From NCBI GenBank assembly GCA_049974095.1, contig JBMFJD010000001.1, positions 60,001-92,000 of the forward strand: a stretch of DNA of 32,000 bases. Direction: 5' to 3'. A program made the position numbers and the translations under genes. Source of the DNA: Nanopusillaceae archaeon (GTDB lineage: Archaea > Nanobdellota > Nanobdellia > Nanobdellales > Nanobdellaceae). Below are positions 10,021-13,438 of this stretch, piece by piece; the first letter of the stretch is position 1; each line of letters starts with the position of its first letter. Below the pieces are notes generated by a model. The model did not search any database and was not told where the DNA came from. It worked only from the letters and a program-made list of their open reading frames with translations.

Positions 10021-12177
10021 ATGAAATTACAAAGTGAAGCATATGTAGCACTATTATTTGTAATTTCTGCTGGTATTATTACTATATTATTATATAATAT
10101 TTTATTTCCTCATATTTCAAATATAAATCCAACTGGACAGGCAATTACAGAATCTTTAAAAATTAACTTCCAACTTCTAGATTATTTTATACAAAATAAT
10201 ACATTATATGCATATGTAAAACCATCAGAACCTGTAAATGCTTCACAAGTATTTGCAATTATAAATAATGAACTAGTTCCTGTTTATTCAATTAATTCTA
10301 ATAGTTCTATAGTTAATCCATATAATAATGGATTATTATTAATTGTTGCAAATTTATCTCAAATACCTGTAGATCAAAACGGAAATTATCAAATAGTGGT
10401 AGGATTAGAAAATGATATTGTTGGTGTTTTTACCATACATTATATGTCTAATGCATTAAGAAATTTCTTTCATCCAATTATTCAATATAATGTTTCTGCT
10501 TTCTCTTCTTCTTCAAGCTTTAAATGTTCACTTTCTCCACCTTATTATTGTATTTATCTGTATAATACTCAAAATATTTCTACTCCTGTACCTTTCCAAC
10601 AAGATATCGAAATATGTAATACAACATCGCTCTATCTTACAAATCAAAATGCAACATATAATCTCATAGGATATAATTATACCATTGGAAGTGTAAGTTC
10701 TAGTGGAAAGGGTAAAAAAACATATTATTCAAATGCAATAATTACTTTACCAAATTCCAATATATATTTATGCTTAGGCGCTGGAAATGTATCCTTTTCC
10801 ATATCTTATAATTCACAAGAAAATGCATCTGGATATGCTATAATTGGATACTCTAATACCAATAATTGTTCAGCTTCTTATTCTGGTTCTTCTGTACCAG
10901 ATGTCGTTGTGGGAGGGTATTCTATAAATACTACAGATTATAGTTTCCTGAATAGTGCATATTATTTTGAAGGTACAACATTTAATAATATAAAAAGTTT
11001 TTCTTATAATTACACTGTATATAATATCTCAAATGTTACAATATCAATTGCTTGTGGATTAAGCAAATGTAATTCAATTAATATACCAGCTGGATGTAAT
11101 GTAATACTTTATAATACAACAGCGGATAATTCAACAACAATTTTTGTAGCTAATTGTTACAATCAATTACCAGGAAATTATAATATAAATGGAACATTAT
11201 TAACCAACGGATATGTTGCACTTGGAGTTTATTTATTTAGTCCAAATATATCTATATATTATTTAATAAATCTAAATGGTCAAAATGTTTATTTCTTTAC
11301 AAATTCTTCTAATCCTCAAAATTCTTTATTATATTCTTGGTATGAAGGACAATTAAATAATGATGGAGTAACTTGTGATGTATGGTGGGTAAATATTTCT
11401 CAAGGAATTCCTGCAAATAATTATACAACAATTTATATGAATATCAATTCTACAAATACTAATTATTATCGATTGTATTATCCATATGTAGGAGCAAATC
11501 CATATGTAATTCAAGGATATGACAATGGACAAAATGTATTCTTAATATATAATAATGGAAGTCAAACATTCCAATATACACGAATTGGAACGGGAGGATC
11601 TATCAGTACTACATCTACTGGTCCTTCTCCTTATAATTATGATATAGTAATGTCGGTAAATGGTGGAGGTGCTAGTGCAACCACATGGACAACAACATGG
11701 ACAAATTCTACACAATTACCTTCTTCATATATTGCACAAATGTTAGTATATATAACAGGATCTTCTCCTTTAATTGATATGTTAACAAATATACAGAATT
11801 ATCCAAATGGAGCTTTTTATGTATTTAGATTTGATGCTAGAGGTACATACTATGATGGAATAGGATACTATCCAGCAGGAGGAACAGGAACACAATTTTT
11901 AAATTATACTAGTATAACATCTTCAACAAATACGTGGTATCAAATGACTGTAATAGATAATAATGGATATTTATATTTATATAAATCTACTTCTTTTAAT
12001 TTGGGAAATTATGGTAATTTAGAAGCTTCTTATAATACTCAAGGAACATCTTATTATCTATCTGGAAGAGGTTTTGGTATAACTACAGATGGTGCAACCT
12101 CTACAGATTATTATACTTTAATATTAGTTAGAGCATATCCACCAAATGGAGTTATGCCACAGGTATATATAAGTTAA
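10021..12177 (+). CDS. Large secreted Asn/Cys-rich glycoprotein candidate: FlaG/pilin-like N-terminal helix, Cys-rich insertion, and DUF2341/LamG-like C-terminal region (putative adhesin)
   Basis: N-terminus MKLQSEAYVALLFVISAGIITILLYNILF. I count about 27 N-x-S/T sequons by hand. There is a Cys-containing middle segment (CLGAGN, NNCSASY, IACGLSKCNSINIPAGCNV, VANCYNQ). The C-terminal part contains LLYSWYEGQLNNDGVTCDVWWVNIS...TTIYMNINS and a LamG-like WYQMTVIDNNGYLYLYKS. It lies 10 nt downstream of the preceding gene. Confidence 0.6.
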   Translation: MKLQSEAYVALLFVISAGIITILLYNILFPHISNINPTGQAITESLKINFQLLDYFIQNNTLYAYVKPSEPVNASQVFAIINNELVPVYSINSNSSIVNPYNNGLLLIVANLSQIPVDQNGNYQIVVGLENDIVGVFTIHYMSNALRNFFHPIIQYNVSAFSSSSSFKCSLSPPYYCIYLYNTQNISTPVPFQQDIEICNTTSLYLTNQNATYNLIGYNYTIGSVSSSGKGKKTYYSNAIITLPNSNIYLCLGAGNVSFSISYNSQENASGYAIIGYSNTNNCSASYSGSSVPDVVVGGYSINTTDYSFLNSAYYFEGTTFNNIKSFSYNYTVYNISNVTISIACGLSKCNSINIPAGCNVILYNTTADNSTTIFVANCYNQLPGNYNINGTLLTNGYVALGVYLFSPNISIYYLINLNGQNVYFFTNSSNPQNSLLYSWYEGQLNNDGVTCDVWWVNISQGIPANNYTTIYMNINSTNTNYYRLYYPYVGANPYVIQGYDNGQNVFLIYNNGSQTFQYTRIGTGGSISTTSTGPSPYNYDIVMSVNGGGASATTWTTTWTNSTQLPSSYIAQMLVYITGSSPLIDMLTNIQNYPNGAFYVFRFDARGTYYDGIGYYPAGGTGTQFLNYTSITSSTNTWYQMTVIDNNGYLYLYKSTSFNLGNYGNLEASYNTQGTSYYLSGRGFGITTDGATSTDYYTLILVRAYPPNGVMPQVYIS

Positions 12178-12205: not shown

Positions 12206-12278
<73 letters not shown>

Positions 12279-13220
12279 CTAATGGGTTTCCCATCCAACA
12301 GATTCTTCAAATCCTAATAATTTTTTAATATAAAATTCTAATAGATTTTTTTCTTTATTTGTTATTTTGCATTCATTATGTGCTAATTTTAAATATCTTG
12401 GATATGATTGATAAAAATATATGTTTTCTTTTATTATTTCTAAAAATTTTTCTCTTCCAATTTTTTCCAATCCTTCTATTCTATATATATGATCATTATA
12501 TCTTGCCCTAAAATACATTATTAATATTTTTTTATTGAATATTTTATTTAATATTTCATCTGGAACTTTTCCTTTAAAGAAATAATCTAATTCTTTTTCC
12601 ATTATATCTGTATAGAATATCTCATTTGGAAATGCTCTCATTAAAATTATCATATCCGATTTTCCTTTCCTTATTATATCTAAATTTAATATTCTTTTTG
12701 CAACTGCTAATAAATTTCCATTGTTAATTAAATATTCAAAATTCTCTAGGAATTCCTTTTTTCTATCTTCAATTCTTTCATCATCAAATTTTTCTAAAAA
12801 TTTAGAATACAATATTCCATCAGAAATTATTGATCCATCTATAAAAATATATCTATCACTATATTTTCTTGCCAATTTATATTCTAAATTTTTAGAAAAT
12901 AGAGAAGAAATATCTGATATATCAAAATTTCCTCCACTTTCAGATCTTAAAAAAGTATTCTCAAAAAATTCTATATCTTCTATTACATCATATAGATCTT
13001 CAGAAATAATTACTGCTCTAGAATATACATATGTATAAGGCCCAATTATTCCATTTATATATGAAGAATCTATAAATCCATATTTTTTATCTTTTTTTAA
13101 TTCTATATTATCCAGATTTATTGTTTTTATACTTTCTTTTTCTATCTTAAAATTTAAATTTATTTCTTTTATTTTATTTATTTTTTCATTTATTTTTTTT
13201 AATAGCTCTTCTTTTATCAT
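12279..13220 (-). CDS. NurA-domain-like nuclease candidate (314 aa after trimming the start)
   Basis: I trimmed the start to the ATG at 13218-13220 (MIKEELLKK...). The track's first 58 codons are antisense to tRNA-Ser and the GC-rich element. Two DxS-type motifs (YGFIDSSY and YIFIDGSIISDG) and a C-terminal YPRYLKLAHNECKI resemble NurA-domain motifs. Confidence 0.5.
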   Translation of the reverse strand: MIKEELLKKINEKINKIKEINLNFKIEKESIKTINLDNIELKKDKKYGFIDSSYINGIIGPYTYVYSRAVIISEDLYDVIEDIEFFENTFLRSESGGNFDISDISSLFSKNLEYKLARKYSDRYIFIDGSIISDGILYSKFLEKFDDERIEDRKKEFLENFEYLINNGNLLAVAKRILNLDIIRKGKSDMIILMRAFPNEIFYTDIMEKELDYFFKGKVPDEILNKIFNKKILIMYFRARYNDHIYRIEGLEKIGREKFLEIIKENIYFYQSYPRYLKLAHNECKITNKEKNLLEFYIKKLLGFEESVGWETH

Positions 13221-13255
13221 AATTATTTTATAATTTAAAGATATATAATATATAT

Positions 13256-13317
13256 CCCCGCTTAGACGAACCAATGTGAGAATATGATCATTGGTAACGA
13301 TGGGCCGGGGGACAACA
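13256..13317 (+). ncRNA. GC-rich structured RNA candidate with single-hairpin H/ACA-guide-like architecture, directly upstream of tRNA-Ser
   Basis: Lower stem CCCCG (13256-13260) / CGGGG (13306-13310). Internal loop strands CTTAGACGA and AACGATGGGC. Upper stem ACCAATG (13270-13276) / CATTGGT (13289-13295). The 12-nt apical loop TGAGAATATGAT has GA at both ends (K-loop-like). ACAACA follows the stem at 13312-13317. A TTTATA box lies at 13227-13232, 29 nt upstream of 13256. The region is about 50% GC in a ~25% GC genome. Confidence 0.35.
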
Positions 13318-13318
13318 T

Positions 13319-13402
13319 GCCGCGGTGCCCGAGTGGACCAAGGGGTCTGGCTGGAGACCAGATCCCCGAAAGGGGGCGTGGGTTCAAATCCCACCCGCGG
13401 CG
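13319..13402 (+). tRNA. tRNA-Ser (anticodon GGA), class II with long variable arm, no intron, no encoded CCA
   Basis: Acceptor GCCGCGG/CCGCGGC with discriminator G. Anticodon stem TCTGG/CCAGA with loop CTGGAGA. Variable arm tCCCCgaaaGGGGgc. T-arm GTGGG-TTCAAAT-CCCAC. Confidence 0.9.
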
Positions 13403-13438
13403 TTTAATTTAAATAAATATTTATTTTAATTATTACCT

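Follow-up and report, generated by a model that had tools for sequence, protein, structure and literature searches.

What kind of RNA, if any, is encoded by the G+C-rich segment that lies directly upstream of the transfer RNA gene tRNA-Ser(GGA) in an otherwise A+T-rich nanoarchaeal genome? The segment is part of a window of 32,000 nucleotides (nt) from a Nanopusillaceae archaeon (assembly GCA_049974095.1, contig JBMFJD010000001.1, positions 60,001 to 92,000 of the forward strand), and an initial annotation had described it as an H/ACA-like hairpin RNA with its own promoter, fused head-to-tail to the tRNA; positions given below are those of the window unless a comparison locus (L) is named. The analysis leads to a likely, though composite, answer: the element would be a predicted H/ACA guide RNA of about 60 nt, co-transcribed with tRNA-Ser and separated from it by RNase P, with U2504 of the 23S ribosomal RNA (rRNA) as its most likely substrate. 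As for the host, the L18 gene next to the tRNA also occurs on a JGI metagenome contig from a hot spring, and the closest relatives of its product are those of Nanoarchaeota archaeon YN1 (89%), Nanobsidianus stetteri, Nanopusillus acidilobi and other Nanopusillaceae; the window thus belongs to this family, the terrestrial sister group of Nanoarchaeum equitans.

The hairpin occupies positions 13255-13314 on the plus strand (about 60 nt) and has a G+C content of 52%, compared to 23.5% for the window overall, which bears out the claim of a G+C-rich element in A+T-rich DNA. In a scan for G+C islands, the only non-coding ones in the window were four tRNAs and the element before tRNA-Ser(GGA). An overlapping open reading frame (ORF) on the minus strand (12279-13394) had been regarded as spurious, and rightly so: it is a GTG-initiated extension, while the NurA gene call (Pfam PF09376, 313 aa) starts at 13220. 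The folding energy of the hairpin is -21.4 kcal/mol (z = -3.0 against dinucleotide shuffles; z = -3.8 to -6.3 in relatives). From 5' to 3', it comprises the lower-stem 5' strand UCCCCGCUU (13255-13263), the pocket 5' guide strand AGACGA (13264-13269), the upper-stem 5' strand ACCAAUG (13270-13276), the K-loop UGAGAAUAUGAU (13277-13288), the upper-stem 3' strand CAUUGGU (13289-13295), which forms a 7-base-pair (bp) helix with 13270-13276, the pocket 3' guide strand AACGAU (13296-13301), the lower-stem 3' strand GGGCCGGGGG (13302-13311, partner of 13255-13263), and the ACA box (13312-13314), which is present in all homologues. The spacer ACAU (13315-13318) and the first nucleotide of the tRNA, G13319, follow immediately. 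The K-loop offers U.U, G.A and A.G layers under the terminal loop and is presumably the L7Ae site. The lower-stem 3' strand reads GGG(C)CGGGGG, with one bulged C (13305 or 13306) that is found in the window copy only.

The upper stem ACCAATG/CATTGGT, the loop (TGAGAATATGAT in DNA letters), the ACA and the TTTATA at 13227 all lie where the initial annotation had placed them. Its hairpin had to be redrawn in part: the upper stem stands, while the lower stem of 5-6 bp extends to nine layers, of which three are G.U pairs (UCCCCGCUU/GGGCGGGGG), and the pocket becomes one of 6+6 nt. The ACA said to follow the stem is indeed the first one, at 13312-13314, and this is the conserved copy. It is separated from the closing pair of the upper stem by 16 nt in the window and by 15 nt in 12 homologues, a difference that is due to the one extra bulged C.

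Does this hairpin belong to a known class of guide RNAs? In productive archaeal H/ACA guides, the lower stem counts 7-9 bp, and the two strands of the pocket measure 5-8 nt (5' side) and 5-6 nt (3' side). Stacking from the closing pair up to the sheared G.A of the K-turn or K-loop amounts to ten layers, and an ANA/ACA box lies 14-16 nt from the closing pair (PMC4652768, PMC2377435); lower stems of 5-6 bp, as in Pyrobaculum, were also accepted. Layer counting was calibrated on Pab40 motif 1, for which the Rfam consensus yields pocket strands of 8+5 nt and ten layers, in agreement with the assignment of this motif to "subfamily 85, 10/5/9" (PMC4652768). Counted in the same way, the lower stem of the element, with nine layers, falls within the published range, as does its pocket of 6+6 nt (AGACGA/AACGAU). 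The upper part has ten layers, judged on sequence, with U.(G/A/U), G.A and A.G on top of seven Watson-Crick pairs, and the distance to the ACA box of 15 or 16 nt is likewise within the limits. This geometry corresponds to the productive "10/6/9" fold (PMC4652768). The single-hairpin guide layout that had been proposed thereby holds up on all published geometry rules and on the covariation of the stems described below, and the element structurally qualifies as a single-hairpin archaeal box H/ACA guide small RNA (sRNA) that is in no curated family. Since it obeys the rules but has no match in Rfam or in N. equitans, it is classified here, by its structure, as a new family of H/ACA guides.

Two other assignments were tried and rejected. 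One was homology to the H/ACA sRNA of N. equitans, the only known nanoarchaeal one; a comparison with the published sequence revealed nothing shared. A box C/D sRNA can be discarded as well, as a regular expression for the C/D'/C'/D arrangement matched nothing in the window or its relatives and there is no D box. Scans of viral contigs with the element, the 16S probe described below and the 23S motif returned chance matches only.

The element is conserved among relatives. It lies directly 5' of tRNA-Ser in 10 of the 12 closest genomes (GTDB species representatives), and also occurs on three further contigs from metagenomes or metagenome-assembled genomes (MAGs) that were reached via NurA homologues. 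A covariance model built from 11 copies retrieved two divergent ones with 62-67 bits (E about 1e-13 to 1e-14), one in Nanobdella aerobiophila (L012:5706-5765, 62.5 bits) and one in the Nanopusillus MAG CTOTU25739 (L085/86/87, 67.2 bits), so that the element is present in at least 13 Nanopusillaceae/Nanobdella genomes overall. All copies, including those of Nanobdella and CTOTU25739, adjoin NurA; a more distant NurA locus (L088) is devoid of the element. Column identity reaches 91-92% within the element as opposed to divergent A+T-rich spacers on either side, which argues that it is more than a chance hairpin. Ten of 13 lineages, as well as Nanobdella, share the 5' guide AGACGA, which is replaced by CGAAGA in L007 and by GGUAGA in CTOTU25739. 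The 3' guide AACGAU does not vary within Nanopusillaceae, apart from two species that have AGCGAU, and reads AUCGAA in Nanobdella. The K-loop UGA...AUGA is invariant in 13 sequences, and its last base is G, A or U, but never C.

In the alignment, 96.6-98% of the stem cells are paired, compared to 36-54% when the partner columns are slid by one to three columns. Changes on both sides are seen at three pairs: lower-stem pair 7 (C-G, twice U-A, and G-C among homologues), lower-stem pair 5 (U-A in Nanobdella) and the apical upper-stem pair (G-C in the window, A-U in the other copies). They amount to five compensatory cells, a count reached by none of 500 shuffles. The covariation is limited by the closeness of the sequences, but it points in the right direction, and the check on homologous loci that had been proposed thus returned both a conserved element and compensatory stem changes. 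A separate observation concerns the upper stem: Nanobdella and Nanopusillus have the same sequence there, ACCAAUA/UAUUGGU, in spite of free covariation in the lower stem, and such constancy exceeds the needs of pairing.

The association with NurA in every lineage, including those in which no tRNA follows, and the distance of merely 34 nt between the element and the NurA ATG raise the question of whether the element acts on the minus strand instead, as part of the promoter or the 5' untranslated region of the divergent NurA gene. This alternative is highly improbable. Four conserved G.U pairs would become A.C mismatches on the minus strand, and the plus strand folds better by 2.4-6 kcal/mol in three of four lineages. 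The ACA box and the UGA...UGA K-loop are read correctly on the plus strand only, and taken together with the four G.U positions they fix the plus strand as the functional one by sequence criteria. Moreover, the A+T-rich gap of 34 nt has just the size for a NurA TATA box and a leaderless start, which would place the element outside the NurA mRNA, and the distant NurA locus L088 does without it.

How, then, is the guide related to the tRNA behind it? The tRNA-Ser(GGA) gene extends from G13319, its position +1, to the discriminator base G73 at 13402 on the plus strand. These are the bounds given by Rfam (tRNA family, 57.2 bits), while ARAGORN reports 13318-13403; an alignment with relatives supports the gene as well, and the CCA end is not genome-encoded. 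The head-to-tail junction that had been claimed is real and conserved: in 12 loci, the ACA box and tRNA +1 are separated by spacers of 1-5 nt (U, GAU, ACAU, UUUAU or CUUAU), and in none of them does the spacer contain a TATA-like sequence or oligo-T; the ACAU of the window is no exception. The two RNAs are adjacent, lie on the same strand, have no promoter or terminator between them, and are kept in this order across species, as expected of a dicistron. Archaeal transcription terminates at oligo-T, and the T-rich stretch TTTAATTTAAATAAATATTTATTTTAAT (13403-13430, plus strand) that follows the tRNA in the window is accordingly a likely terminator of an sRNA-tRNA unit. Upstream of the hairpin, the TATA-like box TTTATAAT (13227-13234, plus strand) is a candidate promoter of the sRNA. 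The distance from the start of TTTATA to the hairpin is 28 nt in the window and in YN1, and 27 nt in the Nanopusillus/Nanobsidianus group; for comparison, box A of N. equitans lies 26 nt upstream of the start (PMC3491384).

The adjacency of the two genes is not intrinsic to the sRNA, however, and here the fusion claim needs to be qualified. Standalone copies with no tRNA downstream exist in Nanobdella (L012:5706-5765) and in CTOTU25739 (L085-87). The latter ends in ACA-TTTTATTTATT, an oligo-T terminator that is absent from fused copies, which, as in the window, have the T-rich stretch after the tRNA instead. In Nanobdella, tRNA-Ser(GCU) is located about 4 kb beyond the sRNA, next to L18. Since the standalone copies sit beside the same NurA neighbour, the sRNA is autonomous and ancestral, and the tRNA was joined to it later; from the gene order, the fusion looks like the product of a deletion in one clade, in line with genome compaction. 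The standalone copies also speak to the notion that the hairpin is merely a structured 5' leader of pre-tRNA-Ser, which stabilises the precursor or modulates RNase P and has no guide role. Its position immediately 5' of the tRNA in 12 loci would suit such a leader, but homologues with the same K-loop, pocket and ACA that lack a tRNA largely refute it, and the unpaired bases of the pocket and loop are conserved beyond what a leader would need; this explanation is very improbable.

Separate transcription is a more serious contender for the fused loci. The sRNA could end near its ACA box, or the tRNA could start at +1 from a cryptic promoter within the sRNA gene, as in N. equitans, where a box A 26 nt upstream of the start yields leaderless tRNAs (PMC3491384); the Nanopusillus-type spacer UUUAU is, in addition, slightly T-rich. 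A box at this distance would have to fall into the region 20-36 nt upstream of tRNA +1, GAGUAUUGGUAACGAUGG. This region is taken up by parts of the upper stem and of the 3' guide, and it contains no run of six or more A/T nor any other A/T run from which a TATA box could be made. T runs are also absent from the spacers of YN1 (1 nt) and of L007 and the window (3-4 nt), and the standalone copy shows that an obvious terminator (TTTTATTTATT) can follow this sRNA, while the fused copies have none. With RNase P reported in the family, separate transcription appears quite unlikely, and co-transcription of sRNA and tRNA-Ser is a strong inference from the arrangement of the locus.

RNase P itself was the basis of a further claim, namely that such a junction would be notable in a lineage that has lost this enzyme. 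This does not apply here, as the window belongs to Nanopusillaceae and not to N. equitans. For Nst1, an RNase P RNA and three protein subunits have been reported in explicit contrast with N. equitans (PMC3655853), and RNase P is listed as "Present" in both Nst1 and N. acidilobi, with POP5 annotated (PMC4935971 supplement). Given its presence in Nanopusillaceae, ordinary cleavage at tRNA +1 could separate the two RNAs. A guide would further depend on H/ACA proteins, among which the pseudouridine synthases of arCOG00987 are presumably of the Cbf5/TruB type. N. acidilobi has a synthase of this group (Nps_01225), which is found in the proteome, and an annotated L7Ae (Nps_02695) (PMC4935971 supplement).

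Several side observations can be made on the tRNAs and genes around this locus. In L007, the fused position is taken by tRNA-Ser(GCU) rather than by the GGA isoacceptor, and tRNA-Ser(GGA) and (GCU) are identical outside the anticodon arm (window 13319-13402; L007:9882-9966; L012:9868-9953; L013:370-454). A tRNA-His gene (window 12207-12279) with a genome-encoded G-1 (atG/GTCCGGG) holds a fixed position at the NurA 3' end in all relatives, which makes the tRNA-His/NurA/sRNA block a conserved synteny unit. Just upstream of this tRNA-His, an ORF of 718 aa (window 10021-12177, plus strand) encodes a protein very rich in Asn, Ser, Thr and Tyr that has an N-terminal hydrophobic segment and looks like a surface or secreted protein. 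Elsewhere, tRNA-Cys(GCA) and tRNA-Leu(TAG) abut with a spacer of 0 nt (L085:2636-2797, minus strand; also L086 and L087) and are probably a co-transcribed pair.

What would such a guide modify? Neither the window nor the first set of loci contains rRNA. It was recovered by scanning metagenome contigs with a published Nanopusillus 16S probe/primer sequence, which led to L063 and L076 with complete 16S and 23S genes, and further rRNA loci were reached via the FlaI and ProRS neighbours: YN1 (L092), Nst1 (L099), a CTOTU25739-like lineage (L096-98) and another Nanopusillaceae lineage (L093/94). Guides and rRNAs could be matched, in that L092 stems from the same genome as the guide in L003, L099 is on the same contig as the guide in L009, and the CTOTU25739-like lineage comes from the same samples as the guide in L085/87. 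The initial annotation had predicted a contiguous target of the form GCCCAUCGUU-UN-UCGUCUAAG. This sequence is absent from the Nanopusillaceae rRNAs, where CAUCG-AUG-UCGUCU at 23S U2504 was found in its place. Canonical target searches in the window and all loci, in E. coli rRNA and, for hypothesis generation only, in archaeal rRNAs gave nothing convincing; the best canonical match in Nanopusillaceae rRNA, 16S U1393, has 6+3 pairs and is not conserved between lineages. Orthology to Pab40 motif 1, which would place the target in helix 89 (E. coli ~2495/2496), was considered and rejected: ATCGTTTNTCNTCGATGTCGGYTC had 0 matches in the metagenomes, and the corresponding Nanopusillaceae rRNA site is not complementary.

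The site at U2504 emerged under a relaxed geometry in which, at the top of the pocket, up to one extra base of the target and up to two bases of the guide could stay unpaired. With these settings, exactly one site with at least 4+4 contiguous pairs exists in 16S and 23S rRNA together (about 4.4 kb), namely U2504 of the 23S rRNA (E. coli numbering). The site reads C2498-A-U-C-G2502, A2503-U2504-G2505 and U2506-C-G-U-C-U2511, and is part of a segment equivalent to E. coli 2490-2520, GCGACAUCGAUGUCGUCUCUCC. It can form 5+6 Watson-Crick pairs with the guide: CGAU of the 3' guide strand together with G13302 is complementary to C2498-G2502 (CAUCG), and the 5' guide strand AGACGA to U2506-U2511 (UCGUCU). 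The site lies in the peptidyl-transferase centre (PTC), and U2506-U2511 represent the 5' strand of helix 90. It is identical in L063, L076, L077, YN1 (L092) and Nst1 (L099), and guide and site occur together in the same genome in YN1 and even on the same contig in Nst1. In E. coli, this position is a pseudouridine (Ψ2504).

The details of the pairing are suggestive as well. The guide pairs with two lineage-specific bases, A2499 and U2509, where E. coli has C and G, respectively; for N. equitans, a C/D target string shows a G at 2509. The U at 2509 is balanced by a compensatory change in helix 90 (GAGCUG to GAGAUG). The invariant 3' guide faces a conserved, single-stranded segment of the PTC, and the variable 5' guide faces helix 90, which is able to covary. 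When tested on Nanopusillaceae rRNA, the Nanobdella guide also matches the U2504 site, and does so with a canonical UG spacer (U2504-G2505), because the U at position 2 of its 3' guide AUCGAA pairs with A2503. As for the unpaired bases, experiments with Haloferax volcanii, both in vitro and in vivo, have shown that archaeal ACA-box H/ACA ribonucleoproteins (RNPs) tolerate 3-4 unpaired bases or "NU", and that pairing on the 3' side matters most (PMC7075261). Based on this complementarity, U2504 is tentatively proposed as the substrate of the predicted guide, with a probability that falls somewhat short of even.

A number of points weigh against the reading of the element as a co-transcribed H/ACA guide for U2504, and they concern each of its parts. 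With regard to the target, no convincing canonical site with a UN spacer exists in Nanopusillaceae 16S or 23S rRNA. Under the relaxed geometry, the score of the actual pair is equalled by 3.3% of dinucleotide-shuffled rRNAs and by 4.7% of shuffled guides, and a spacer of 3 nt has been classed as unfavourable (PMC4652768). The 5' guide variants CGAAGA (L007) and GGUAGA (CTOTU25739) form no more than 2+2 pairs with UCGUCU, and the Nanopusillaceae lineage of L093/L094 has C2504. With regard to the promoter, TATA-like sequences are common in DNA of 10-15% G+C, which makes the promoter call weak. With regard to the proteins, a search by name revealed neither Nop10 nor Gar1 in the table for N. acidilobi (PMC4935971 supplement), and a motif search found Cbf5, Nop10, Gar1 and L7Ae absent from the examined Nanopusillaceae contigs, a result attributed to the genes lying elsewhere in the genomes.

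With regard to the RNA class, no Rfam H/ACA family was matched at threshold. The nearest one, HgcG (RF00064), scored 21.7 bits against a gathering threshold of 77, with flanks included. This sub-threshold match to HgcG/Pab40 covers window positions 13198-13411 (E = 3.6e-4 in a search of 401 nt) and vanishes when the hairpin alone is scanned. In the alignment, the tRNA acceptor stem was placed on the third hairpin of the model and the A+T-rich flank on the model promoter, while the loop of the element was aligned by cmscan to the K-loop of Pab40 motif 1. Apart from its bearing on this locus, the case is a caution on full-length alignments of multi-hairpin models.

The points on the target side could also be explained by a genuine H/ACA RNA whose substrate is not U2504, but a tRNA or another RNA, or by an orphan or chaperone that pairs with the PTC strand during assembly of the 50S subunit without modifying it. 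The lack of a canonical rRNA target, the modest support for the relaxed match (p ~0.03-0.05), the poor pairing of the L007 and CTOTU25739 guide variants on the 3' arm and the C2504 of L093/L094 would all be accommodated in this way, and the comparison with tRNAs covered a handful of them from Nanopusillaceae. On the other hand, a single match in about 4.4 kb of rRNA that recurs in five loci and includes two lineage-specific bases would be a coincidence, as would the fact that the guide of Nanobdella, which has diverged independently, leads to this site too. A different substrate or a chaperone role is thus unlikely, and U2504 is retained as the candidate target.

The rRNA loci recovered for this search have peculiarities of their own. 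The PTC strand of Nanopusillaceae (23S, L063:3940-4010; also L076, L077, L092-L094 and L096-L099) is altered at near-invariant positions: most lineages carry C2499A together with G2509U, L096-98 carry A2503U, and L093/94 carry U2504C and keep C2499. Furthermore, the 16S and 23S genes do not form an operon, but are about 6 kb apart and divergent (L063:1415-11783; L076:1412-11775; L092:4060-14470). Between them lie TGT, S19, two FlaJ-like genes and FlaI, with ProRS beyond the 23S gene, and this order is kept from YN1 to the CTOTU25739-like lineage.

Taken together, the locus might operate as follows. Transcription would be initiated from the TATA-like box about 27 nt upstream, presumably at A13254, a purine 1 nt before the hairpin. 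The nascent hairpin would recruit L7Ae to its UGA...UGA K-loop and Cbf5-Nop10(-Gar1) to the ACA box and the lower stem. In the clade in which tRNA-Ser would have come to lie 1-5 nt behind the ACA through a deletion, transcription would continue through the tRNA to the T-rich stretch, and a cut by RNase P 5' of G13319 would generate the mature 5' end of the tRNA and the 3' end of the sRNA at once. The latter would lie 4 nt after the ACA in the window (1-5 nt in the clade) and might be trimmed further. The resulting RNP would pair with nascent 23S rRNA near the PTC, CGAUG with C2498-G2502 and AGACGA with U2506-U2511, leaving A2503-U2504-G2505 unpaired, so that U2504 could be isomerised to pseudouridine. 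The anatomy of the element, its conservation and covariation, its adjacency to the tRNA and its complementarity to the 23S site are observed; its transcription, protein binding, cleavage and pseudouridylation activity are inferred. An extended version of this scheme combines a guide 3' end made by RNase P with an atypical modification of U2504 across three unpaired bases, and has the guide co-evolve with the PTC and helix 90 bases A2499 and U2509, and possibly U2503, as the one H/ACA guide that these symbionts with their reduced genomes keep specifically to stabilise a mutated catalytic centre of the ribosome at high temperature. In its entirety, this version is doubtful.

The element represents a solid case of a non-coding RNA gene that is probably unannotated so far. 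No H/ACA guide of terrestrial Nanoarchaeota (Nanopusillus, Nanobsidianus, Nanobdella) is described in the literature that was searched, and the element would be the first one, outside every Rfam family. Likewise, a limited literature search found no description, in archaea or eukaryotes, of an H/ACA guide that lies upstream of a tRNA and has its 3' end made by RNase P, although such a case may be known elsewhere. The locus illustrates how transcription units can be merged as a genome is compacted and yet stay functional if RNase P is retained. The opposite route was taken by N. equitans: RNase P was lost, and promoters were moved to make +1 the start of the tRNA transcripts. The predicted target, in turn, lies in the catalytic centre of the ribosome, in a region with unusual substitutions in Nanopusillaceae, and the prediction is testable in co-cultures of Nanopusillus/Acidilobus and of Nanobdella.

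Among the known systems, the element is most readily compared to the archaeal single-hairpin guides, such as Pab21/Pf1, Pab91, Pab160/Pf9 and Pab40/Pf7 motif 1 (HgcG, RF00064) of Pyrococcus, with which it shares the same architecture (PMC4652768, PMC2377435). The K-loop and stems align column for column with those of Pab40 motif 1; however, there is no significant sequence homology to Pab40/HgcG, the Rfam score remains below threshold, and a spacer of 3 nt is atypical. The two would also approach the ribosome differently. Pab40 motif 1 places its 5' strand on 23S 2498-2502, with the modified position equivalent to ~2496 (as deduced from the Rfam consensus and numbering offsets), whereas the element would use its 3' strand on the same nucleotides and point at U2504. 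The predicted guide resembles stem-loop 2 of sR-h45 from H. volcanii in that more than two bases of the target would stay unpaired where the pocket meets the upper stem; in sR-h45, four are unpaired, this atypical pseudouridylation depends on ACA, and pairing on the 3' side is dominant (PMC7075261). In contrast to sR-h45, which acts on UVUN with two modified U in helix 69, it would act on AUG with a single U in the PTC.

The H/ACA sRNA of N. equitans (159 nt, between NEQ389 and NEQ392; Randau, 2012) belongs to the same RNA class in the same phylum; it is preceded by a box A promoter of its own and followed by a T-stretch as terminator. Unlike the element, it consists of two hairpins with internal K-turns, is unrelated in sequence and guides, and has no link to a tRNA. 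Such links are known from the plant tRNA-Gly-snoR43 and from tRNA-Val-sRNA8 and tRNA-Gly-sRNA3 of N. equitans, in which a guide and a tRNA share one transcript and an enzyme of tRNA end-processing frees the guide (PMC3491384), an organisation that the predicted transcript of the element would share. In those dicistrons, the tRNA comes first, the guide is of the C/D type and RNase Z makes its 5' end; here, an H/ACA guide lies upstream of the tRNA, and RNase P would make its 3' end.

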